A DNA stretch of 64,000 nt from an uncultured Eubacteriales bacterium (GCA_900319565.1 ONPC01000133.1:12323-76322), one strand, 5' to 3'; positions 313-51,298 are shown, counted from the stretch's first letter. Notes: generated by a model not told the origin, from the sequence alone. Translations and numbers: made by a program.

Positions 313-341
313 TTGAAATGAACATGAAAATATGGTAACAT
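313..341 (+). promoter_or_regulatory. Sigma-A-type promoter candidate for the xpaC-telA pair
   Basis: TTGAAA (313-318), 17-bp spacer, TAACAT (336-341), with TG at -15/-14. It overlaps the ORF-track ATG at 340, which favours the downstream start at 415. Confidence 0.5.
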
Positions 342-414
342 GTTAATGTGCGGTCGAATCGGCAGATTTCGACTCTGTAAGAATGCTTTTTACTATAAAG
401 GTGGTGAGTTTATC

Positions 415-2049
415 ATGGCTGACAAAATGAATCCGAATGACCTGGGCGACACAATACGTCGTTCTGTTGAGCAGGCGGTGAATACGATCAATTCGATGGT
501 CGGCCAGATAACCGGAACGACCCCAAATACAAATCAACAACAAGGCCGGCCGCAGAGTTTGGCGGCTCGCCGGAAGGCACAGGAGCAGCAGGCGGCACTT
601 AACGGACAGAATTCCGTCGCGCAGGCAGCGCAGCAGGTGCGAAATCAGTTTGATGCAGCGCCGAAGTATCCGGCGGTCTATTATCCGCAGCCCGGAGTTC
701 CGGGCGTGCAGTACACCGGACAGCCGGTTCAGCAGATGCCGGGACAGCCGATGCAGACGCTGCCGCAGGGACAGGTTCCCGGCGTGCAGCCGTACGTGAG
801 CCCTATGCAGCAACCGATGCAGCCGGGTGCGGTTCCGCGTCAAAATGTGCAGCAAAACTTTATGCAGCCGGTGCCACAAGCGGGCCAGGCGGGCTCTCCG
901 GGTCAGCGTGGACGCGGGGCGTTCGGAGGACGCGGCGGAGCGGGCGGCAACCAGAATGTAAATCAATATCCGATGGTGGAAACGAATACGCATATTAACG
1001 ATACGCGTTATCCCGATTATATGCGGACCAGCCGTCCGGCTCCGGTGCGCAGGGCGAACCAGCCGGCACAGCAGATGCGTGTGACACGTAAGGCGGACGC
1101 ATTTCCCGGTGAGGAAGACAACAACACGCGTAACGTAACGTTTCTGGTATTCGCCATTCTGTCCGGCATCTTTTCTTTCGGCATGCTCTCGGAGATCTTT
1201 GACGGAGAGGAGACCGTAGGCGGCGGGATAATAGGATTTGTGCTGGCTCTGGGGGTCTTCGGAGTGTTCCTTTTCCTGTTTATGCGCTCCAAGGCGAAGA
1301 AAAAACAATATGCACGGTTCCGCGAATATATCAAACGATATGCGACCCAGCCGCAGGTCTCGGTTCTCGAGATATCGGCGGCCATGGGCGTCGAGCCTTC
1401 CGTAGTCCGTGAAGACTGGAAGGCCATGATCGAACTCGGTGTGTTCCCGCAGGGGCATTTCGCGGCGGGCGAACAGGTGATCTACCTTTCGGATGCCGGC
1501 TACGAAAACTATATGAAGACCTACGGACTTTCGGAAGGAAGCGGAAAGGGGGCGGCCGGAGCATTGCCCGCGCCCGCAGCAGTAGAAGAAAAGAAGCACT
1601 CCCCGGAAGTCGAAAAGGCACTGGAACAGGGGCGCAGTTATCTGCTTCAGCTCCGTAATGAAAACGACGCGATCCCCGGTGAGGTGGTCAGCCGTAAGCT
1701 GGACAGCCTGGAGGATGTCTGCAAACGTATCTTCCGCGTGGTGGAAGACCATCCCGAGAAACTTCCGGAGATCCGGAAATTCATGGAATACTACATGCCG
1801 ACGACCTTGAAACTGGTGCATACGTACCGTGAGTTCGAAGATCAGAAGCTGGAGGGTGACAACATCACCCGTACGAAAAAAGATATCGAGGATACTCTTG
1901 ATATGATCAATGTGGCGTTTGAGAACCTGCTGAATGACCTGTTTAAGGATGCGGCAGTGGAAGCGTCCGCCGACATTTCGGTCCTGAATGCGCTGTTTGC
2001 GCAGGAAGGCCTTAAGGAAAAGGAATTTGAAGTGATTCCGAGAAAATAG
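415..2049 (+). CDS. xpaC: XpaC-like (5-bromo-4-chloroindolyl phosphate hydrolysis family) membrane protein with a long Q/P/G-rich N-terminal region
   Basis: ORF 340-2049. Preferred start is ATG 415, preceded by GGTGGTGAG (401-409). The protein has a Q/P/G-rich low-complexity region, then two hydrophobic helices (FLVFAILSGIFSFGML, IIGFVLALGVFGVFLFLF), then a helical C-terminus (KFMEYYMPTTLKLVHTYREFE). I recognise the C-terminus as XpaC family, which is classically paired with TelA. Confidence 0.65.
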   Translation: MADKMNPNDLGDTIRRSVEQAVNTINSMVGQITGTTPNTNQQQGRPQSLAARRKAQEQQAALNGQNSVAQAAQQVRNQFDAAPKYPAVYYPQPGVPGVQYTGQPVQQMPGQPMQTLPQGQVPGVQPYVSPMQQPMQPGAVPRQNVQQNFMQPVPQAGQAGSPGQRGRGAFGGRGGAGGNQNVNQYPMVETNTHINDTRYPDYMRTSRPAPVRRANQPAQQMRVTRKADAFPGEEDNNTRNVTFLVFAILSGIFSFGMLSEIFDGEETVGGGIIGFVLALGVFGVFLFLFMRSKAKKKQYARFREYIKRYATQPQVSVLEISAAMGVEPSVVREDWKAMIELGVFPQGHFAAGEQVIYLSDAGYENYMKTYGLSEGSGKGAAGALPAPAAVEEKKHSPEVEKALEQGRSYLLQLRNENDAIPGEVVSRKLDSLEDVCKRIFRVVEDHPEKLPEIRKFMEYYMPTTLKLVHTYREFEDQKLEGDNITRTKKDIEDTLDMINVAFENLLNDLFKDAAVEASADISVLNALFAQEGLKEKEFEVIPRK

Positions 2050-2085
2050 AAATAGCATGGCGAAACCGTGCGGATAGGAGTAGAT

Positions 2086-3306
2086 ATGGATGAAACTATG
2101 AAGCCTCAGGAGCAGGTAAAGGAAGCGGTTCAGGAGCAGGTGATCGAGACGATCGTGGCGGATGCGCCCGAGGCGCCCAGCCTTACATTGACCCCGTTTG
2201 ACTCACCCGAGACGAAGCCCGTTCTGGTCACAGATGCACAGAAGGAAGAGGAGCAGGTCGAGGATATGACCGCTGCGATCCTGTCTGAACAGGAACTGAA
2301 GCAGGTGGAGCAGTTCTCCAAGCAGATCGACTTGAAGGATACAAACTCTATCATGCAGTACGGTGCCGGAGCGCAGAAGAAGGTTGCGGATTTCTCTGAG
2401 GCAGCTTTGAATAACGTGCGCACGAAGGACCTCGGTGAGGTCGGCGGCATGCTGTCTTCCCTGGTTACCGAACTGAAGTCGTTCGACGTGAAGGAGAACG
2501 AGAAGGGCATCCGCGCATGGTTTAAGAGAAGCGCGAATAAAGTCGAGGCCATGAAGGCGAAGTACGCAAAGGCCGAGACAAATGTCAACAAGGTTTCCGA
2601 GTCTCTCGAGAAGCATCAGGTGACACTGCTTCGTGATGTTGCGATGCTGGACAACATGTACGCGACCAACCAGAACTATTATAAAGAACTGACCATGTAT
2701 ATCCTGGCCGGCAAAAAGCGCTTAGAGCGCGCTAAGAATGAAGAACTCGTCGCACTGAATGAGAAGGCAAAGCAGACCGGTCTGCCCGAGGATGCACAGG
2801 CTGCAAACGATTTTGCGGCGCTGATCAACCGCTTTGAGAAGAAACTCCACGACCTGGAACTGACCCGCGTGATCTCCATTCAGATGGGACCGCAGATCCG
2901 CCCGGTACAAAGCAACGATACAGTCATGAGCGAGAAGATCCAGTCCACACTGGTGAACACGATCCCGCTTTGGAAGAGCCAGATGGTCCTGGCGCTCGGC
3001 ATGAGCCACTCCATGGAAGCTGCTAAGGCACAGGGAGAGGTGACCGACATGACGAACGAACTGCTGAAGAAGAACGCAGAGATGCTGAAGATCTCTTCCA
3101 TCGAGACGGCGAAGGAATCCGAGCGCGGCATCGTTGAGATCGAGACGCTGCAGCAGACGAACCAGTCCTTGATCGATACGCTGGATGAGGTTATGCGCAT
3201 TCAGAACGAAGGCCGCGAGAAGCGTGCGGCTGCGGAGATCGAACTTCGTAAGATCGAGAACCAGATGAAGGAAAAACTGCTCGAGATGAGCACTCGCAAG
3301 CAGTAA
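2086..3306 (+). CDS. telA: TelA/KlaA-family toxic anion resistance protein
   Basis: ORF 2068-3306. Preferred start is ATG 2086 with AGGAG at 2076-2080. The protein is helical and coiled-coil rich, with IMQYGAGAQKKVADFSE and LVTELKSFD segments typical of TelA. It is adjacent to the xpaC-like gene. Confidence 0.8.
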   Translation: MDETMKPQEQVKEAVQEQVIETIVADAPEAPSLTLTPFDSPETKPVLVTDAQKEEEQVEDMTAAILSEQELKQVEQFSKQIDLKDTNSIMQYGAGAQKKVADFSEAALNNVRTKDLGEVGGMLSSLVTELKSFDVKENEKGIRAWFKRSANKVEAMKAKYAKAETNVNKVSESLEKHQVTLLRDVAMLDNMYATNQNYYKELTMYILAGKKRLERAKNEELVALNEKAKQTGLPEDAQAANDFAALINRFEKKLHDLELTRVISIQMGPQIRPVQSNDTVMSEKIQSTLVNTIPLWKSQMVLALGMSHSMEAAKAQGEVTDMTNELLKKNAEMLKISSIETAKESERGIVEIETLQQTNQSLIDTLDEVMRIQNEGREKRAAAEIELRKIENQMKEKLLEMSTRKQ

Positions 3307-36219: not shown

Positions 36220-36311
36220 TTGTCGGCGGAAAATGCGTTTGATATAATAGTTATAGTTGGATAAATGGGGCACGTTTTTGCCTTTACGTACGCATGCGGA
36301 TGCGGTATAAT
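36220..36311 (+). promoter_or_regulatory. Two candidate promoters upstream of the zinc-ribbon/TIR gene array
   Basis: P1: TTGTCG (36220-36225), 17 bp, TATAAT (36243-36248), with TGa extended -10. P2: TTTACG (36283-36288), 17 bp, TATAAT (36306-36311). I cannot say which of the two is used. Confidence 0.45.
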
Positions 36312-36369: not shown

Positions 36370-37149
36370 ATGTTCGTGTTAAATTGCAAAAGGTGCGGGG
36401 CACCGCTGGATATAATTGAGGGGGCACGTGTTTGTACATGTAAACGCTGCGGCAGCTCCCAGACGTTACCAGAATTCGGAAACACGGACTCGGATGCTCT
36501 GCTTCTGTTACAGGAAGCGGAAGCTGCGTGGAAACAACTGGCGCAAAGTGATTTTGCTGCGGATAGTCAAGAATTACGGGAACTGGCACAGAAATATGAG
36601 CAGATCGTGTCAGATCCGCCGATGGTCGCTTCCGATGCAGCAGGAGATTCAGCGGGATATACATTGACCGAAAAATGTGCAAATAAGGCAGTTTATTGCC
36701 GCTATCTCGGAGCAGTCTCCGATCTGAAAAGATCGGAGGATCCGGAGGCAGAAGAAAATGCATATGACTATTTGGTATCGCTGGGAGACTACGAAGACGC
36801 GGAACGGATCCTGGATGCATACAGATATAAAATGCTTCGGACAGAGAAAGAAAAAAAGAACCGAAAGCAGAATGAATACAAGGGACTGGGGTGGTTTATG
36901 CTGGCTCTTGCTGCGTTTTCGCTGGCCTTCGGTATCTTCGTGGGATTCACGAACAAAAATAACAGGGGCGGTTTTGGCTATTTTCTCGGGAGTATGGTGC
37001 AGGCGACACTTTTAATGATGGTTATTCTCTGCATCCCCGTCGCACTGTATTTGATTGGGGATCGAATCGCAAAATGGGTAAATACCACGAGAGAAGAGTA
37101 TGAGGAATTCGAATCGGATGATGATCCGGAGGAGGAAGGCAAATGGTAG
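36370..37149 (+). CDS. Zinc-ribbon protein with one LGDYEDA-type repeat and two C-terminal TM helices (array member 1, no TIR)
   Basis: GGAGGAG RBS. Head MFVLNCKRCGAPL...CTCKRCGSSQTLP. LGDYEDA at 36781-36801. Hydrophobic helices GWFMLALAAFSLAFGIFVGF and ATLLMMVILCIPVALYLI. Confidence 0.8.
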   Translation: MFVLNCKRCGAPLDIIEGARVCTCKRCGSSQTLPEFGNTDSDALLLLQEAEAAWKQLAQSDFAADSQELRELAQKYEQIVSDPPMVASDAAGDSAGYTLTEKCANKAVYCRYLGAVSDLKRSEDPEAEENAYDYLVSLGDYEDAERILDAYRYKMLRTEKEKKNRKQNEYKGLGWFMLALAAFSLAFGIFVGFTNKNNRGGFGYFLGSMVQATLLMMVILCIPVALYLIGDRIAKWVNTTREEYEEFESDDDPEEEGKW

Positions 37150-39179
37150 TTTATAACTGTAAAATGTGCGGAGCTCCGCTGAATATCGAAGAGGGAATGA
37201 CCGTATGTGAATGTGAATACTGCGGGACCAGGCAGAGCCTTCCGAAGATCGGGGACGAAAAGAGGCTGGCGCAGATCAATCGCGCGAACTACTTCCGCCA
37301 GAATGGTGAGTTTGAACGTGCCGAGAGGATCTATGAAGAACTGATCGAAAACCTGGATGCAGCGGGTCATCTTGCCGCGGATCCGGCACAGAACTCCGGC
37401 TCCGCTTCGGCATCCGGTGATATCGCCGGGGCGCAGGAGGCTTGGGCTGCGATCCAAGAGGCAGATGCGGACCTGTTCTGGTCGCTGGCGCTGTGCCGCT
37501 ACGGCATCGAATATGTGACAGATCCGGTCACAGGAAGGAAGATCCCGACCTGCCGGATGTTGCAGTATAAAAACATCCTGGACGACGATGACTATCGCCG
37601 TGCTGTTTCCCATGCGGATTATGCGCAGAAGGAACTGATCATGTCCGAAGCGCGCTATATATCAAATATACAGAAGGGCATCCTCGAGATCTCCCGGAAG
37701 GAAGAACCGTACGATGTGTTCATTTGCTATAAGGAAAGCGACGATCAGGGTACCCGGATGAAAGACAGCGTTCTGGCACAGGATATGTATTATCAGCTGA
37801 TCCGCGAAGGCTATAAGGTGTTTTTCGCGCGTGTGACGCTGGAGGGAAAACTGGGCACGGAGTACGAGCCCTATATCTTTGCTGCCCTGAATTCGGCGAA
37901 GGTCATGATCGTGCTGGGTACGAAAAAGGAACACTTTGAGGCGACCTGGGTGAAAAACGAATGGATGCGGTATCTGGCCCTGATGCGGGATGACCGTAAA
38001 CGTCGCCTGATCCCGGCGTACCAGGACATGGATCCGTACGACCTGCCGGAGGCGCTTTCGATGTTTCAGGCACAGGATATGTCCAAACTGGGCTTCATGC
38101 AGGACATCCTGGCGGTGATCCAAAACATGGATCAGGAGGAACGTGAAAAAACATCGGCTCGCCGTGAAACGCTGGTCGTTTCGGATGTGACGGAGACAGC
38201 GCCGCTGCTGCGCCGAATCGGCTATTTTCTCGAAGACGGCGAATTCGACCGGGCAGAGCAGTACTGCGACCGCGTGCTGAACCTGGATCCGGAGTGCGCG
38301 TGGGCCTACGTATACTCCATTATGGTCGAAAAGAAGGTACATACGCTCGAGGAACTGGAGCAGGTTTGTGACTATGACGGTATGACCGCCGATGACAACT
38401 ATAAAAAGGCGATCCGTTTTGCGGATCCGGAACTGAAGGAAAAACTGAAGCGCATTGACCAGCAGATGATCTACAACGATGCGGTAAACAAAATGCAGCA
38501 TCCGGAGGATGTCGCGCATTTTCCGGAGACGGTTCCGGAGTTTCGCAGCATTCCGGGCTTTAAGGATGCCGACCAGAGACTGCTGGAATGCGTTGCTATG
38601 AAGCGGAATCTTTCGGAGCAGATGTTTGCGGAAGCAGAGCGGGATCTGGAGCGCCTGATGAGGGATGTGCATAAGTATCCTTCACCGTTTCGGGAACTGG
38701 CGGGAAGATATGCGCTGATCGCGAAAATGAAACCGGATCCGGAACTGGATGAAATGGAGAGACAGAATATGGCTCTCTGGAGTAAGACCAGTGAGGAGAA
38801 GGTGATGGAATGTCGATATATCGCTGCGGTCACCGAACTGAAACGCGCGGCGCGTCCGGAGGAGGTCAATATAGCCTATATTCATTTGAGGGAATTAGGC
38901 GATTATAAGGATGCGCAAGCCCTGGTGAAACAGCATAAGGCCGAAAGCAAAGAAAAAGAGAAGCAGAGGCAGAAAGCCGAAGAGGATTACCTGCGTGAGC
39001 GCGCGTTGAGCGGTTCGGGCGGAGGCCGCCGCAGTTTCGCGAGTGAGTTAGGAGCGAAAAGCATTATTACGACCATACTGGGTATTATCGCGATTATTAT
39101 CATAATCATCGGATTAGTAACCGGCAATCTTACAATAGGTGCCCTTCTGGAAAGTTTTCTCGAAACGGACTGGGATTAA
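37143..39179 (+). CDS. Zinc-ribbon / TIR-domain protein with a C-terminal TM anchor (array member 2)
   Basis: The start ATG overlaps the stop of member 1 (ATGGTAG). Head MVVYNCKMCGAPL...CECEYCGTRQSLP. TIR-like region ~37707-38130 (DVFICYKESDD, VFFARVTLEGKLGTEYEPYIFAAL, WVKNEW). C-terminal helix IITTILGIIAIIIIIIGLV. Confidence 0.85.
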   Translation: MVVYNCKMCGAPLNIEEGMTVCECEYCGTRQSLPKIGDEKRLAQINRANYFRQNGEFERAERIYEELIENLDAAGHLAADPAQNSGSASASGDIAGAQEAWAAIQEADADLFWSLALCRYGIEYVTDPVTGRKIPTCRMLQYKNILDDDDYRRAVSHADYAQKELIMSEARYISNIQKGILEISRKEEPYDVFICYKESDDQGTRMKDSVLAQDMYYQLIREGYKVFFARVTLEGKLGTEYEPYIFAALNSAKVMIVLGTKKEHFEATWVKNEWMRYLALMRDDRKRRLIPAYQDMDPYDLPEALSMFQAQDMSKLGFMQDILAVIQNMDQEEREKTSARRETLVVSDVTETAPLLRRIGYFLEDGEFDRAEQYCDRVLNLDPECAWAYVYSIMVEKKVHTLEELEQVCDYDGMTADDNYKKAIRFADPELKEKLKRIDQQMIYNDAVNKMQHPEDVAHFPETVPEFRSIPGFKDADQRLLECVAMKRNLSEQMFAEAERDLERLMRDVHKYPSPFRELAGRYALIAKMKPDPELDEMERQNMALWSKTSEEKVMECRYIAAVTELKRAARPEEVNIAYIHLRELGDYKDAQALVKQHKAESKEKEKQRQKAEEDYLRERALSGSGGGRRSFASELGAKSIITTILGIIAIIIIIIGLVTGNLTIGALLESFLETDWD

Positions 39180-39237
39180 CAAATGAGCGCTCCCTTTATA
39201 TGACTGCGTAGTTTTAAGAGGGCAGAGAGGATAAATA

Positions 39238-41295
39238 ATGGCTGTATATACATGTAAAATGTGCGGAGGAAAACTGAAGCCGGAAGAAGGCTCGGCCATC
39301 TGCACCTGTGAATACTGTAAGACGAGGCAGACGCTGCCGCTGATCGATGACGAACAGGCGGCGAACCGCATTAACCGCGCGCATCATTTCCGCCAGCTCG
39401 GCGAGTTTGATAAAGCGGCGGATACTTATACGGAGATGATCGCGATCGAAGGCGGCTCAGGCATGAGTTTGAGCCACGTGGACCCGGAACTGTTCTGGTC
39501 GCTGGCGCTGTGCCGTTACGGCATCGAGTATGTCAACGATCCGGTGACGCATCAGGGAGTCGCGACCTGTCATCGCGTGCAGTATAAGAGCATTTTGGAC
39601 GACGCGGATTACCTGCAGGCCCTGGACAATGCGGACCCGCTGCGCCGCGCTTACTACGAGCAGGAGGCGCAGTATATCGCGTCGGTCCAGAAGCGGATTC
39701 TGGAGATATCGGAGCGAGAGGAGCCGTTCGATGTCTTTTTGTGCTACAAAGAGACGGATGCGGAAGGAAAACGTACGAAGGACAGCGTCCTGGCGCAGGA
39801 GATGTATTATCAGCTGATGAAGGATGGGTTTAAGGTATTTTTCGCCCGGATCACCCTGGAAGGGAAGCTCGGGACCGAATATGAACCCTACATTTTTGCT
39901 GCGCTCCATTCGGCGCGGACCATGGTCGTGATCGGTACCGATCCGGCCTACTTTTCTGCGCCCTGGGTGAAAAACGAGTGGGCTCGTTTCCTTGCGGTCA
40001 TGAAGGAGGAGGGCTTCCGCTCTTTGATCGTGGCCTATAAGGACATGAACCCGTACGATATCCCGGATGCGCTTTCGATGTATCCGGCGCAGGACATGGG
40101 AGAACTGGGCTTTTTGCAGGATCTGACGCGCGGTATCCGTAAATTGTCGAATAAGGAAGAGGAGCTTCAAAACAAAAACCGCGCCCGGGAAACCGTTGTG
40201 ATCACATCCAACACCAACGTGGAGCCGTTGCTCAAACGCATCGGCTTGTTCATGGAGGACGGCGATTATACGAGCGCCATGGAGTATTGTGAAAAGACGT
40301 TGGACATTTACCCGGAATGCGCGCAGGCCTACCTGTACCTGGTTTTGGCGAAACGGAAGATAAAGACCGCGGAGCAACTTAGCGAATCAAAAGAAGAATT
40401 CGACCTTCTGGGCGATCGGGATTTTCAGAAGGTGCTTCGCTTCGGGGATGAAGACTGCAAAAGGAAAATGCTGCAGTTGGTTCGTGAAAAAGAATACAGT
40501 GCCACTGTCGGGCGGTATGACCGGTTTTTGATGGTCGAACTGAAAAAAGGGTGGAACCCGCCGGAGCAGATTCGGGACCTGATCGACCGTTTCCGCCAAA
40601 TGGACGGTTATAAGGACAGCGATGCGATCATAGAAAGACTGGAGAGGAAATATACACTCAGTCGGATCTATGGGGCGGCTGAAGAACTGAGAAACGCACA
40701 GACGAAGGATGAACTGGCGGCGGCCGCAGCCGGAATCCGTGAGATCGAAGATCTCCGAAACGATCCGGAATTTCAGGCGATCTTTGACTATCCGGACCCG
40801 GAAGAAGCTTATAATAGGGCATTGAAATTGATGGAAGACTATAAGGAGCCGGAGGAAAACCTCAAAGCTGCCCGGATGTTTGCTTACCTGGCGGATTACA
40901 GAGATTCCCCCCGTTTGCTGAACAAATGCATCAAAATGATCCAATATACAGAAGCAACGAATGCAATAAACGGCAACACGGTTGCCGACTGCTTCAAAGC
41001 GATCTATTTGTTTAATTCCCTGGGGGATTTTGAGGATGCTCCTCAGAAGGCCGTCGCCGCAAAAGAAAAATGGCAGGAATTGGTCTATTCCACGGCGGTG
41101 AATACGATGGAATGCGCCCGGGAACCCGAAAGTTTCGAGAAAGCTATCGCTATGTTTGAATCCCTCGGGGACTACAATGATTCCGCGAAAAAAACCGAAG
41201 AGGCGAAAAAAAGCCTGAAAAAAATGATACGGAAGATCAACAAAAAAGGAGTCGACCCCAAAGGCGGCGATTTTATGATGAAAAAGTGGCTGTAA
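39238..41295 (+). CDS. Zinc-ribbon / TIR-domain protein, no TM, with four or more LGDYKDA-type repeats (array member 3)
   Basis: GAGAGGA RBS. Head MAVYTCKMCGGKL...CTCEYCKTRQTLP. TIR-like region ~39724-40146 (DVFLCYKETDAEG, VFFARITLEGKLGTEYEPYIFAAL, WVKNEW). Repeats at 40606-40620, 40888-40908, 41020-41040 and 41164-41184. Confidence 0.85.
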   Translation: MAVYTCKMCGGKLKPEEGSAICTCEYCKTRQTLPLIDDEQAANRINRAHHFRQLGEFDKAADTYTEMIAIEGGSGMSLSHVDPELFWSLALCRYGIEYVNDPVTHQGVATCHRVQYKSILDDADYLQALDNADPLRRAYYEQEAQYIASVQKRILEISEREEPFDVFLCYKETDAEGKRTKDSVLAQEMYYQLMKDGFKVFFARITLEGKLGTEYEPYIFAALHSARTMVVIGTDPAYFSAPWVKNEWARFLAVMKEEGFRSLIVAYKDMNPYDIPDALSMYPAQDMGELGFLQDLTRGIRKLSNKEEELQNKNRARETVVITSNTNVEPLLKRIGLFMEDGDYTSAMEYCEKTLDIYPECAQAYLYLVLAKRKIKTAEQLSESKEEFDLLGDRDFQKVLRFGDEDCKRKMLQLVREKEYSATVGRYDRFLMVELKKGWNPPEQIRDLIDRFRQMDGYKDSDAIIERLERKYTLSRIYGAAEELRNAQTKDELAAAAAGIREIEDLRNDPEFQAIFDYPDPEEAYNRALKLMEDYKEPEENLKAARMFAYLADYRDSPRLLNKCIKMIQYTEATNAINGNTVADCFKAIYLFNSLGDFEDAPQKAVAAKEKWQELVYSTAVNTMECAREPESFEKAIAMFESLGDYNDSAKKTEEAKKSLKKMIRKINKKGVDPKGGDFMMKKWL

Positions 41296-41310
41296 TTCTG
41301 TGCTGAAGTC

Positions 41311-41339
41311 TTTTCAAATCTTAAACAATGTGCTATAAT
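41311..41339 (+). promoter_or_regulatory. Internal promoter candidate for array member 4
   Basis: TTTTCA (41311-41316), 17 bp, TATAAT (41334-41339), with extended -10 TGc. Confidence 0.45.
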
Positions 41340-41418
41340 AACAGACAGATGGAATATCGGAATCCAATATGTGCGAAAACGAGAAAGATCGAGACAAAAC
41401 GTAAAGGAGATATACACC

Positions 41419-42990
41419 TTGGCTGTAATGAATTGTAAGATGTGCGGAGCCCCATTGTTCGTTATGGATGGTATGCGCACACGTGAATGCACGAATTGTA
41501 AAACGCTGCAGACAGTTCCGATGACGATATCGAATGAAAACCTGGATCTGGTGAATCGGGCAAACTCGTTCCGCCAGAGCGGTGATTACGATAAAGCGGC
41601 AAAGATCTATAAAGAATTACTTACACGTGAACAGGACCCGGATCTCTATTGGGGTCTGGTTTTGTGTCGCTATGGCGTTCAGTATGTCGACGATCCGGCG
41701 AGCGGTCGTAAGATTCCGGACTGTCATAATCCGCAGTACCAAAGCATTCTTGCGGACGACAACTATCTTCGTGCGACCGAGATCGCCACGACGGAGCAGT
41801 ATGAACTGATCTCAGAGGAAGCCCGCATCATCGCGGCCATCCAGAAGCGGCACTTGCAGGAGGTAAATGCGCGCGAGGCGGATGAAGCCCGTATGCTTAC
41901 GGACGGCTCCGACCGCTTCCCGGGTGAGGAACCGGGAGATTCTGCATTTTCCGCTGCCTCCGACGAAGAGGCGGGTTCCGTATCCTTGCTTCCGGCTGTT
42001 TTAGGTAAGCGTAAACTGGTCGATCCGGAGATGGCAGAGGCGGATCGTATCTTAGCCCGCGGCCTTCTGGATACCCGATCCCTGAATAACCTGGCGAACC
42101 GCTATGAGAAGATGGCGGCAGCACGCCCGAAGCCCGGAGACAGCAAGGAAGTCCGGGCGGCTTTAGAGGAGCGGCGTGTAGAGTGCCTGGAGAAAGCAAG
42201 AGAATGTCGATACCGCTCCGCGAATATGCTTCTGGAAGCTAACGGCAACGCGGAAAGCATGCTGAATGCTTCCAACACGTTTGCCCAGCTTGAGTATTAT
42301 AAAGATTCCAAACAGCTGATGCTGAACTGCATGGACCGTGCGCTAGATAAGACGCGCCGGATCCAGGATCGGCTTACGAGCGCTACCGTGCAGGACCGCC
42401 GGCTTTTGGCGGATCTGTCCGTGCGCTATAAGGAACTGATCGAAGAAGAAGTGCCGGAGAGCGTTCCGGAGGAGATCCGGAAGATGCTCAACCGGAGCAA
42501 ACGTGAGTTTTCCATCCGGGCCAATGAATGCGACTACCTGATCGCCCTCATTGACATGGAGAACTCGAAGGATCCGGAGATCCTGCGTACGGCAGAGGAC
42601 ACCTTCCGCAATCTGGGTAAGTTCCGTGATGCCTCCAAGCGCATGGATGAGGCACACAAAAAATCAATGTCGGCTGCCTATGAGCGTGCGGAGCAGGCCA
42701 TGAAATGGGCCTACGAACCGGAGCAGTTCGAGGAGGCGGCAATGCTGTTCGAGGAACTCGGCGAATACCGTGACTGCGTACTGCAGGCTTCTGTCTGCCG
42801 TAAGAAGGCTGTCCGTAAGGAGATGAAGCACATCAGCAACCGGCGCTGGCATCTGATCGTTGCAGCAGTGGCGGTGACCATTGTCCTGATCGTAGCGCTT
42901 CTGGTGTGGATCCAGCCCGAACTGCCCGTTTGGATCGGCGTATTCTTAGGCGTCGGTTATCTGTGGAAACGTATTCTGGAAGTATTATAA
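41419..42990 (+). CDS. Zinc-ribbon protein with the conserved Cys/aromatic linker, TIR replaced by an acidic low-complexity segment, LGxYRD repeats and a C-terminal TM (array member 4)
   Basis: ORF 41371-42990. Preferred start is TTG 41419, 9 nt after AAGGAG (41404-41409). That gives (M)AVMNCKMCGAPL, collinear with the paralog N-termini. Repeats at 42289-42309, 42613-42633 and 42757-42777. C-terminal helices LIVAAVAVTIVLIVALLVWI and VWIGVFLGVGYLW. Confidence 0.75.
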   Translation: MAVMNCKMCGAPLFVMDGMRTRECTNCKTLQTVPMTISNENLDLVNRANSFRQSGDYDKAAKIYKELLTREQDPDLYWGLVLCRYGVQYVDDPASGRKIPDCHNPQYQSILADDNYLRATEIATTEQYELISEEARIIAAIQKRHLQEVNAREADEARMLTDGSDRFPGEEPGDSAFSAASDEEAGSVSLLPAVLGKRKLVDPEMAEADRILARGLLDTRSLNNLANRYEKMAAARPKPGDSKEVRAALEERRVECLEKARECRYRSANMLLEANGNAESMLNASNTFAQLEYYKDSKQLMLNCMDRALDKTRRIQDRLTSATVQDRRLLADLSVRYKELIEEEVPESVPEEIRKMLNRSKREFSIRANECDYLIALIDMENSKDPEILRTAEDTFRNLGKFRDASKRMDEAHKKSMSAAYERAEQAMKWAYEPEQFEEAAMLFEELGEYRDCVLQASVCRKKAVRKEMKHISNRRWHLIVAAVAVTIVLIVALLVWIQPELPVWIGVFLGVGYLWKRILEVL

Positions 42991-49861: not shown

Positions 49862-51298
49862 ATGAGGTTTAAAAAGGGATTGGCGGTTTTAACCGCTTCT
49901 GTCATGACACTGTCCGCTTTGAGCGGCTGCTCGAATAAAGTCAGCAAGGATAAGTTTTCCACGACGGTCGGCGCGACCTACGGCGACCAGAAGATCTATT
50001 TGGAGGAGTTTCAGTTCTATACGAAATTGTATCAGCCGCAATTTGATCAGAGTGAAATACCCATGTTACAATATTGGTATGGGCTTCTTCCTCAGAATAT
50101 GAGTCTGGAGCAACTCTACAGCGAAAAGGTTGAGATGTCTAACGGCCATTACATGACTCCTACTCAGATGCTGAAGGAGTACGTAGTGAAAGTGGTTTAT
50201 CAGACCCGTGTTCTGAACGATTATGCTAAGGAAAACGGAATTACACTGTCCGATGACGACCAAAAGAAGATTGATGAAAAAGTCAAGGAATACACCGAAG
50301 GGGACAGTAAATACCTGCTAGAAGGAACAACTGTTTCCGAGGAAACGATCAAGCGTATATTAACGGAGAACGCGCTGGCTCAGAAAGCCCACGAAAAATT
50401 GGGCGAAGGCTATGACAAAACCGTGGACCGGGAGCTTTTCCGTGTGGCTAAAGCATACTATTTCACGGTGGACAAGGACTCGGATGATAAGACCGACGAG
50501 AAGAGCCGTGCAGAGGCAGTCTATTCGGAATTTAAGAGCAAGTTTGAAGAAGCGGGAAAGAAGATCGAGAGTGTAGATCTCAAAGCGATCAAAGATAAAT
50601 TCACGGATGCGGAAGGAACCGAGAACAGACTCCAGACGCTTTTATCTGAGGATGTAACGATCTTTGTCGGTGCCGTAGCTGCCGAGGAAGCCGAAAAAGA
50701 ACACGAAGAACATGAAGAGGGTGACGGACACGATCATGAACACGAGAGCACGGTGACCCAACTGCAGAAGGAAGCGGCGGCTATGGCTGCGGGCGACTAT
50801 AAACTGATCGATGATACAAACGCTTATTACATCGTGTATCTGAGTGAAACAGATAACGAAAAGTCGACACAGCAAAAGATCGACGCTGAATACGAGAAAC
50901 GTAAAGAAGCGAAGTTTGCAGAGAACTATGCAGAACTTTTGAAGACGGCTCCGGAGATCAAGGTCAACAATACCAACTACGATGCAAATATCGTATACAG
51001 CGCGATCGAATATCCTACACAGCCTACGGAACCAGAAACCACACCGGGGGCGACCGAAGCAGTGACCACGACGGCGGCGCCGACCACTGAGGTGGCTACG
51101 ACGGAGGATACGACCACGACGGAAGCATTGACTACAGAGGAAGCTACGGAGGCGGCGACTGAGGAAGGCGAGACGGAAGCCGGCACAGAGGAAGCTACGG
51201 AGGCAGCGACAGCGGAAGGCGAGACGGAAGCCGGCACAGAGGAAGCTACAGAGGCAGCGACAGCGGAAGGCGAGACGGAAGCTCCCGCACAGAATTGA
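49862..51298 (+). CDS. Lipoprotein (possible SurA/PrsA-like chaperone N-domain) with an acidic T/E/A-rich repeat tail
   Basis: Lipobox LSALSGC. No parvulin motif recognised. The C-terminus carries three copies of EEATEAAT(A/E)EGETEAGT. Confidence 0.6.
   Translation: MRFKKGLAVLTASVMTLSALSGCSNKVSKDKFSTTVGATYGDQKIYLEEFQFYTKLYQPQFDQSEIPMLQYWYGLLPQNMSLEQLYSEKVEMSNGHYMTPTQMLKEYVVKVVYQTRVLNDYAKENGITLSDDDQKKIDEKVKEYTEGDSKYLLEGTTVSEETIKRILTENALAQKAHEKLGEGYDKTVDRELFRVAKAYYFTVDKDSDDKTDEKSRAEAVYSEFKSKFEEAGKKIESVDLKAIKDKFTDAEGTENRLQTLLSEDVTIFVGAVAAEEAEKEHEEHEEGDGHDHEHESTVTQLQKEAAAMAAGDYKLIDDTNAYYIVYLSETDNEKSTQQKIDAEYEKRKEAKFAENYAELLKTAPEIKVNNTNYDANIVYSAIEYPTQPTEPETTPGATEAVTTTAAPTTEVATTEDTTTTEALTTEEATEAATEEGETEAGTEEATEAATAEGETEAGTEEATEAATAEGETEAPAQN
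51137..51284 (+). repeat. Three near-identical 51-bp tandem repeats inside the lipoprotein gene
   Basis: Units start at 51137, 51188 and 51239 (GAGGAAGCTACGGAGGC(G/A)GCGAC...GGCGAGACGGAAGCCGGCACA). Only a few substitutions separate the copies. Confidence 0.85.

Follow-up and report, generated by a model that had tools for sequence, protein, structure and literature searches.

TIR domains are common to the immunity of bacteria, plants and animals. To our knowledge, the bacterial TIR domains that have been functionally characterised are all catalytic, and the bacterial systems in which they act (Thoeris, CBASS, Pycsar, SPARTA, retrons and NLR-like proteins) are all cytosolic and coupled to a sensor. 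SPARTA is among those that need oligomerisation. Single-protein loci of Escherichia coli that join a TIR domain to a transmembrane (TM) segment or to TPR repeats protect against phage in a manner dependent on the TIR active site, and the same study noted that TM and leucine-rich repeat (LRR) features seem to be absent from bacterial TIR systems (PMC11350192). In Bacillus cereus, the TIR and TPR modules of BcTir/Tpr act jointly in anti-phage defence (bioRxiv 10.1101/2023.05.26.542521). Here we analysed four adjacent genes, O1 to O4, two of which encode TIR domains, in a 64,000-nt stretch of DNA from an uncultured Eubacteriales bacterium (GCA_900319565.1 ONPC01000133.1:12323-76322; hereafter the window). 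A first-pass annotation had proposed these genes as a candidate undescribed TIR-based conflict or defence system. We find that the locus is better termed a lineage-specific paralogue array of a large Clostridial TIR family, at a stable housekeeping locus, than a four-component defence system.

An in-situ tandem expansion between murC and glgC

The four open reading frames (ORFs) are consecutive on the + strand, at the coordinates first assigned to them, and each opens with a common zinc-ribbon head: O1 (36370-37149) encodes 259 aa, O2 (37143-39179) 678 aa, O3 (39238-41295) 685 aa and O4 (41419-42990) 523 aa. All of the motifs quoted in the first-pass annotation, among them the zinc-ribbon pattern of four to five cysteines, were visible in an alignment of the paralogues, with O4 short of one of the five cysteines. 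Using tblastn within the window, we found 46% identity over 510 aa between O2 and O3 (E 1e-146), 41% over 182 aa between O2 and O4 (E 9e-38) and 58% over 38 aa between O1 and the O2 head (E 4e-11), and the C-terminus of O1 resembles the C-terminal repeats of O2 (E 3e-10). A 64-nt stretch of DNA encoding the LCRYGIEYV block (37468-37531 in O2, 39485-39548 in O3) is 89% identical between O2 and O3, against 46% identity of the proteins overall, which could reflect either strong constraint or local gene conversion between the paralogues.

The gene order around the array is prs, dnaC-like, dnaD-like, murC, array, glgC, glgD, pth and mfd, with murC recognised by three Mur ligase Pfam domains and glgC and glgD by NTP_transferase matches on the syntenic genes of two congeneric loci (L045 and L046). 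MurC is 97-100% identical to that of the metagenome-assembled genomes RGIG8251, RGIG7058, RGIG7558, RGIG7973 and UBA1201, which assigns the window to a lineage of rumen Lachnospiraceae. We compared seven congeneric genomes that cover the murC-glgC interval (the window, L001, L002, L005, L021, L045 and L046) and found the array in all seven, with three copies in L001, L005 and L021, four in the window and L045, and five in L002 and L046. A variable presence between murC and glgC, proposed as a point to check, was thus not borne out, and the array is not a variable island. Universal conservation at this locus together with a housekeeping phenotype had been named as an outcome that would speak against a defence role, and the occupancy of one housekeeping locus by every congeneric array goes part of the way there. 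An O4-type gene is last in each array; the O1-type gene was found among the congeners in L002 and L046 only, as a 375-aa form that retains more of the head.

In a neighbour-joining tree of the cores, the copies from this genus form one clade divided into O2-type and O3-type sequences, with additional O2-type duplicates in some species. The single clade points to duplication and loss in situ rather than repeated acquisition, and the locus is a vertically inherited tandem expansion of one family, with copies born and lost in place. What had been taken for a multi-component system is instead, by this tree and the paralogy described above, an array of paralogues. A locus from Vallitaleaceae (L006), considered as a clue to the origin of the array, was uninformative: murC and glgCD lie ~7 kb apart with unrelated genes between them. 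As a separate observation, the intervening genes at that locus (L006:3000-10000) are small, and it may be that the murC-glgC interval repeatedly takes up lineage-specific cargo.

The array genes have 60-90% amino-acid identity to those of the congeners and a dN/dS (omega) of 0.07-0.22, compared with 97-99% and 0.013-0.04 for MurC, GlgC and GlgD, and are thus 4-6 times less constrained than these neighbours; the DnaD-like protein has about 81-83% identity and a dN/dS of 0.10-0.13. For O2 orthologues the values were 60-90% identity and 0.13-0.18, O3 orthologues are 60-88% identical, and O4 is under purifying selection (omega 0.07-0.15). Within the proteins, the TIR domain is the most constrained (omega 0.07-0.14 in O2, 0.04-0.06 in O3) and the C-terminal repeats are the least (0.18-0.23 in O2, 0.19-0.32 for the O3 C-terminus). 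No positive selection was detected at the level of domains, where all omega values were <0.35, so there is no diversifying selection at that resolution. The values of dS were uneven between domains in the orthologue comparisons, which hints at recombination or gene conversion; dS is likewise high in dnaD, and no conclusion was drawn. The range of dN/dS across the array argues that all of the copies are maintained and functional, including O4, which has no TIR domain. O2 and O3 have kept the TIR domain, and O1 and O4 have lost it and are nevertheless retained by selection. Full-length relatives of O4 were found in the same lineage only (eight clusters), with all other matches confined to the head and all of these TIR-bearing; judged by these matches, O1 and O4 are TIR-less derivatives restricted to this lineage.

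The ribosome binding site GAGGAGGAG sits ahead of the O1 ATG at 36370, and the O1 stop codon overlaps the O2 start (ATGGTAG). Upstream of O1, on the + strand, are two sigma-70-like promoter matches (36220-36248 and 36283-36311), each with 10 of 12 consensus positions and each recognised by pattern alone. The O4 start is a TTG behind AAGGAG that gives a paralogue-like N-terminus, MAVMNCK; a longer GTG start is found at 41371. A promoter-like site on the + strand at 41311-41339 (TTTTCA-17-TATAAT, extended TG), again a pattern match, suggests that O4 may be transcribed separately.

Head, TIR domain and membrane segments

The AlphaFold2 (AF2) model of full-length O2 (mean pLDDT, the per-residue confidence score, 82) runs in the order zinc ribbon, TPR-like hairpins, beta-hairpin, long helix, TIR domain, disordered linker, TPR/alpha-helical repeats and TM helix. 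The head module (37143-37712, aa 1-190; pLDDT 83 and pTM 0.79 when modelled alone) comprises the zinc ribbon (aa 1-34), the TPR-like helices, a variable insert of low confidence (aa 77-105), a beta-hairpin (aa 122-137) that corresponds to the LCRYGIEYV..DP..K.PTC block, and the long connecting helix (aa 160-186). Its invariant residues include C24, C27, R52, W113, C118, G121 and Y124 (O2 numbering). A fold search with the head alone against PDB and BFVD gave nothing significant, only weak TPR and small zinc-ribbon matches, so the head cannot be assigned to a known sensor fold, and a sequence search of PDB with the family profile returned only designed or consensus TPR proteins. The description of the head as sensor-like did not hold up. 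The head does not diversify: it is always coupled to TIR, nothing else in the family is as well conserved as these two, and the variation lies in the C-terminal repeats and, among relatives, in the ectodomains.

The TIR domains proposed for O2 and O3 are genuine. Pfam TIR_2 (PF13676; gathering score 28 bits) matches O2 at aa 192-315 (40.1 bits, E 6e-10) and O3 at aa 166-277 (35.8 bits, E 1e-8), and both retain a glutamate at the catalytic position; the same scan found no TIR match in O1 or O4, and in O4 an acidic linker of low similarity stands where the domain would be. With the AF2 model and Foldseek matches for O2, and the paralogue alignment for O3, we place the domains at 37713-38147 (aa 191-335) and 39730-40167 (aa 165-310), respectively, both on the + strand. 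Residues 192-335 of O2 alternate strand and helix in the model, as in the flavodoxin-like TIR fold, and Foldseek matched the domain with probability 1.0 to the TIR domains of SPARTA TIR-APAZ, TRIF, MAL and TcpB. In the motif W269-V-K-N-E273-W, residues W269, N272, E273 and W274 are invariant across 70 diverse relatives. The best sequence match in PDB, the TIR domain of flax L6, aligns its WCLMEL with WVKNEW, and E135 of L6 is the catalytic glutamate; this alignment puts Glu273 of O2 (GAA codon 37959-37961) and Glu247 of O3 (codon 39976-39978) at the catalytic position.

A relative of O2 has been assayed. Weagley et al. list the in-vitro products of the isolated TIR domain of Eubacterium eligens EUBELI_RS07950 as 'None' (PMC9092222 Table S2), and metagenomic members of the O2 family are predicted 'Inactive' in the same work (PMC9092222 Table S1). 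EUBELI_RS07950 has the same head and TIR domain as O2 (35% identity over the two, E 2e-74).

Beyond the TIR domain, O2 has a TPR/alpha-helical repeat region (38199-39011, aa 353-623), supported by weak Pfam TPR matches and by the AF2 helices, in which a motif GDYKD(A/S) recurs (GDYKDA-type repeats at aa 464 and 579). The protein ends in a TM segment (39048-39164, aa 636-674; hydropathy aa 634-673, AF2 helices 636-660 and 665-674) with RR ahead of it and the acidic tail ETDWD behind it, a charge distribution consistent with a tail anchor of N-in topology. O3 is a soluble paralogue, with a head at aa 1-164 and C-terminal helical repeats. O1 carries the zinc-ribbon head (aa 1-34), one GDYxDA-type repeat and a two-helix membrane hairpin at aa 172-235 (nt 36883-37074; hydrophobic segments aa 172-195 and 202-235). 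O4 carries a head (aa 1-160), the acidic linker, helical GxYRD repeats and a membrane hairpin at aa 475-512 (nt 42841-42954). The hydropathy scan thus agrees with the observation of hydrophobic segments at the ends of O1, O2 and O4, with none in O3.

Pathogen TIR proteins can interfere with host TLR signalling, and the gut and rumen habitat would suit an exported TIR effector directed against an animal host or competitors, as in the Tcp/BtpA class or secreted NADase toxins. However, the proteins have no signal peptide, the N-terminal Cys4 zinc ribbon and the positive-inside anchors put the TIR domain in the cytoplasm, and neither secretion-system nor immunity genes are nearby; we regard export as extremely improbable.

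A Clostridial family with its own operon

Homology searches with O2 gave at least 8,000 matches, the best 120 of which all had E<1e-140 and shared the first ~480 residues with differing C-termini. When O2 aa 1-340 was compared with 1.84 billion cluster representatives, the family comprised at least 3,608 clusters (50% identity) with representatives at E<=1e-30; these proteins are 467-3073 aa long, match in their N-terminal part and have cores 57-71% identical to O2. The family has so far been found only in gut and rumen Clostridia, with Lachnospiraceae, Oscillospiraceae, Ruminococcus, Lachnospira and 'Clostridia' as named sources, where its members are called 'TIR domain-containing protein'. 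Cultured carriers include Ruminococcus sp. YRD2003 (WP_081349232.1) and Lachnospira/Eubacterium eligens ATCC 27750 (EUBELI_RS07950). We found no description of the family or of the operon described below in the searchable literature, in agreement with the proposal that the array is undescribed.

Most relatives do not end at the membrane. Among 382 collected relatives, some of those with no TM helix perhaps being fragments, 254 continue for at least 150 aa past a TM helix, 31 have 40-150 residues beyond the helix, 29 are tail-anchored as is O2, and 63 have no TM helix, as is the case for O3. The regions beyond the helix include DUF6273, RCC1-like propellers and SH3_3 domains, and in the longest proteins LRR_5/LRR_8 (BspA-type; for example P0266, P0271 and P0323), Lectin_C and Flg_new (Listeria-Bacteroides repeats). 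The commonest ectodomain is DUF6273 (PF19789; P0010, P0059, P0241 and P0369), a C-type-lectin-like domain that is diversified by diversity-generating retroelements in receptor-binding proteins of gut phages (PMC10743442); P0010, P0059 and P0117 likewise combine a cytoplasmic TIR domain, one TM helix and an extracellular binding domain. The K/R-rich stretches ahead of the TM helix and the N-terminal Cys4 zinc ribbon indicate, as sequence features, an N-in, C-out topology. A typical member thus joins a zinc-ribbon-TIR core in the cytoplasm, through a TM helix, to a binding domain outside the cell; O1 to O4, which have no ectodomain, are minority forms. Collectively, the family is a large, N-in, membrane-associated TIR group with an invariant cytoplasmic core, limited so far to Clostridia.

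Outside the genus, the family gene directly follows a Band_7_1/SPFH gene and a gene for a protein of ~233 aa with four TM segments (4TM) in 10 of 10 contexts (L028:4646-10595, L032:5445-11069, L034:7359-12064, L035:8005-12601, L037:7432-14575, L039 and L041-L044). The Band_7_1/SPFH protein usually has several zinc ribbons and the 4TM proteins are homologous to one another; often a second family copy or a conserved protein of ~200-250 aa is found near the cassette. The 4TM protein had no Pfam, NCBIfam or PADLOC match, and PADLOC and NCBIfam scans were likewise empty for the SPFH protein and the ~250-aa partner. SPFH-4TM-TIR appears to be a conserved, undescribed operon of other Clostridia. A 575-aa protein with both TIR and Band_7_1 (P0198) was considered as a functional fusion and rejected, because its sequence suggests that a deletion has joined two neighbouring genes; it is probably such a chimera or an assembly artefact and was used as adjacency evidence only. 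Some cassettes adjoin BREX and conjugation genes (L037), Cas9 (L044) or integrase/resolvase genes (L041 and L043), and others a HEPN protein (L035) or a Fic/VbhA pair (L028). The first-pass annotation had suggested looking for co-localisation with defence islands: none accompanies the array in the window. Genes for BREX, Cas9 or recombinases do neighbour some distant relatives.

The SPFH/Band_7_1 and 4TM partners are absent from the 64-kb window and from the six congeneric loci. With the partners missing, two copies TIR-less and one lacking a membrane anchor, the array might be what is left of an SPFH-4TM-TIR system that was once complete and is now decaying or functionless, the domain losses in O1 and O4 representing erosion. 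This was already disfavoured and we consider it very unlikely, as the ORFs are intact in seven genomes, every gene has a dN/dS within 0.07-0.22 (0.07-0.15 for O4 and 0.04-0.14 for the TIR domains) and the O4-type gene has been retained at the end of every array.

A Band_7 protein with a zinc ribbon (called YdjL) is coupled to PspA in the ydjFGH-type psp operon of Bacillus subtilis (PMC11237479; 'TIR' in that paper, which we considered as a mention of TIR domains, refers to CesT/Tir chaperones). The SPFH-4TM-TIR operons resemble the ydj operon in pairing a Band_7_1 protein bearing zinc ribbons with a small multi-TM protein, but no pspA was seen in the operons sampled.

A usual partner of the kind coupled to PspA and membrane-stress handling in Bacillus would suit a non-immune role in envelope signalling or scaffolding, in which the proteins would act as outside-in receptors and adaptors or as a sub-membrane structure with SPFH microdomains. 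The TIR domain would then mainly provide a scaffold for oligomerisation, in the manner of animal TLR adaptors, or would produce a physiological second messenger, and the copies in the window would be adaptor-like. The only family TIR domain tested was inactive as an NADase, the locus is chromosomal and fixed amid housekeeping genes in the seven congeners, the collections of phages and plasmids hold no member, conservation of the cytoplasmic core is very strong from one family of Clostridia to another, and the ectodomains are typical adhesion and carbohydrate-binding modules of Firmicutes surfaces. On the other hand, the characterised bacterial TIR domains known to us are catalytic, and the catalytic-position glutamate and the WxxxE motif are invariant here; the flux in copy number and a divergence faster than that of housekeeping genes suit conflict genes better, as does the position of some relatives next to BREX, Cas9, HEPN or recombinase genes. 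We regard such a signalling role as possible, if somewhat doubtful.

A putative sub-membrane assembly and its relation to known systems

The usual partners of bacterial TIR systems had been reported as missing, and indeed no ThsA, CD-NTase, cyclase, Argonaute (Ago)/APAZ, reverse transcriptase or STAND protein was found in or beside the array with Pfam and PADLOC; the family does, however, have its own SPFH and 4TM set elsewhere. The statement that the array matches no known system also stands, as PADLOC-DB gave no match for O1 to O4; NCBIfam and PHROGs scans of the four proteins returned nothing usable. As for CBASS and Pycsar, no CD-NTase, cyclase, SAVED, STING or cNMP matches were found by Pfam or PADLOC in the four proteins or their neighbours. 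For retron and STAND (Avs, bNACHT) systems, neither a reverse transcriptase nor an NTPase domain was found, and Rfam gave nothing in the window. For SPARTA, Ago and APAZ were not matched and only the TIR domain superposes (~147 of ~420-450 target residues). A 2026 preprint presenting a TIR atlas concerns TIR-STING-like amoeba genes and was set aside.

Thoeris resembles the array in having several adjacent TIR paralogues with the catalytic glutamate motif retained, and the array might hold several TIR sensor paralogues, akin to multiple thsB genes, that make a nucleotide signal for an unlinked effector. The TIR region has partial matches to NCBIfam Thoeris type III ThcB4 (19.5 bits, cut-off 220) and, in the TIR part only, Retron_TIR (18.7 bits, cut-off 600), both weak (E about 4e-4 to 6e-4), with scores that fall far short of the curated cut-offs. 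In contrast to Thoeris, the array has no ThsA effector and no ThsB hidden Markov model match in PADLOC; SIR2, SLOG and Macro genes were found neither in the 64 kb nor within 10 kb of 17 related loci; known Thoeris systems do not feature unlinked effectors; and the proteins (520-685 aa) are three to four times the size of ThsB, with the TIR domain internal and a head, repeats and anchors of their own. A Thoeris-like role thus seems improbable.

The array does not have the hallmarks of a mobile defence island: its presence is fixed, only its copy number varies (3-5), and mobile genetic element (MGE) or defence neighbours and phage or plasmid carriage were not found. No Rfam families, tRNA genes or flanking repeats mark it as an insertion. 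A phage- or plasmid-borne origin was rejected because GenBank phages and PLSDB plasmids gave no match and only two loci were found among 2.9 million IMG/VR contigs.

We favour, with a probability of roughly 0.4, a TIR assembly beneath the membrane, with clustering as the condition for NAD+ cleavage and defence as the output. O1 to O4 would co-assemble beneath the membrane through their common heads and helical repeats, with the anchored copies tethering the soluble O3 and the TIR-less O1 and O4 serving as anchors or regulators. By analogy with other bacterial TIR proteins, monomers of the O2 and O3 TIR domains would be silent, and clustering would turn them into hydrolases or cyclases of NAD+, giving either depletion of NAD+ or a signal of the cyclic ADP-ribose type. 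The trigger, the weakest step of the model, might arise at the envelope or near the membrane, for instance through phage attack, and the output would be growth arrest or abortive infection. In favour of the model are the invariant glutamate at the catalytic position, the constraint on the TIR domain, the membrane partners and the defence genes next to some relatives, and the precedent of the E. coli single-protein loci (PMC11350192). The inactivity of the EUBELI_RS07950 TIR as an isolated domain is consistent with dependence on clustering.

Several observations weigh against this assembly model. The sole family TIR domain to be assayed, that same isolated domain, yielded no NADase products in vitro (PMC9092222), and the PADLOC models match neither the family proteins nor the SPFH and 4TM partners. 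The near absence from phage, plasmid and IMG/VR collections also counts against it, as do the fixation of the array at the murC-glgC locus across the genus and its setting among housekeeping genes in a 64-kb window with no MGE, tRNA or defence genes. As the core is highly conserved throughout, invariance of the glutamate alone would be weak evidence for catalysis, and the trigger in the window is obscure because the ectodomain and the SPFH and 4TM partners are missing. The defence role first proposed has only circumstantial support, tempered by the inactive relative; overall, we judge a conflict role for the array to fall a little short of an even chance, with defence plausible.

Should the TIR domain prove to be an inducible NADase, gut commensals would have in this family a major NAD+ sink or signal source that has gone unrecognised, and the family would represent a new coupling of surface to cytoplasm in bacterial immunity or signalling. 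In contrast to the characterised cytosolic systems, the family has its TIR domain immediately beneath the membrane, in most cases with an extracellular binding domain above it and an SPFH scaffold next to it. Its chief significance lies in this family-level architecture (TIR, TM, LRR or lectin ectodomain, SPFH operon) and less in the array itself, which offers a natural dissection: anchored, soluble and TIR-less versions occur together and make assembly and regulation testable.

The remaining genes of the window serve housekeeping or the use of xylan and uronates. A large xylan/glucuronate utilisation cluster (3897-25814), fitting a rumen fibre degrader, includes a 1017-aa protein with solute-binding domains, a DUF5696 protein (860 aa), GH3, a GH67 alpha-glucuronidase, another solute-binding protein and an enzyme of the mannitol-dehydrogenase family. 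An XpaC-like protein (Halogen_Hydrol domain, 569 aa) and the adjacent TelA (toxic anion resistance, 412 aa), at 340-3306, form a membrane-stress-associated pair 33 kb from the array with no evident connection to it. The 478-aa product of 49862-51298 has no Pfam match; its N-terminus is lipoprotein-like, and its C-terminal tail consists of acidic, T/E/A-rich repeats that are near-perfect (EATEAATEEGETEAGTE...).

Of the described systems, the E. coli TIR-I to TIR-XII set (PMC11350192) resembles O2 in joining TIR with TPR repeats, an anchor or both in one polypeptide, and resembles the array in having no ThsA, CD-NTase or Ago partner. The O2 family differs from these loci in the zinc-ribbon/TPR/beta-hairpin head N-terminal to TIR, the long helical repeats and the usually large ectodomain, as well as in its tandem expansion and its confinement so far to Clostridia, and the likeness would be one of architecture only. 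BcTir/Tpr, unlike the O2 family, consists of two proteins, with NADase activity assigned to the N-terminus of the TPR protein, and has neither a zinc-ribbon head nor an anchor. The best structural neighbours of the O2 TIR domain are those of SPARTA TIR-APAZ (8isy_B and 8qlp; 3.1-3.5 A over ~147 columns, probability 1.0), at 15-18% sequence identity, and the array has no APAZ domain or Argonaute; the SPARTA TIR domain is inactive until oligomerised, which is the activation logic proposed here for O2 and O3.

The family invites a further comparison with Toll-like receptors (TLRs). Like TLRs, O2-family relatives have one TM helix between a TIR domain in the cytoplasm and an LRR, lectin or propeller domain outside the cell, and thus have both TM and LRR, contrary to the remark cited at the outset (PMC11350192). 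The order of the chain is inverted, with TIR N-terminal, and there is no homology beyond the TIR fold, such that the analogy would be purely architectural. A rather unlikely, more far-reaching reading would make the family a bacterial counterpart of TLR signalling. Thousands of single-pass membrane proteins of gut Clostridia, with LRR, C-lectin, propeller or SH3 sensors outside and the zinc-ribbon-TIR core inside, would be organised by the SPFH scaffold and 4TM partner and would respond, for example, to adsorbing phages, contact between cells or glycans of the host; O1 to O4 would be ectodomain-less adaptors or regulators that relay or tune the outside-in signal into an NAD+-derived output. 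The receptor-like architecture is found in 254 of the 382 relatives and not in the window, where O2 extends ~5-20 residues past its anchor and O3 has no anchor; having no ectodomain, the window proteins are in this respect like the membrane-tethered or soluble TIR adaptors of animals.

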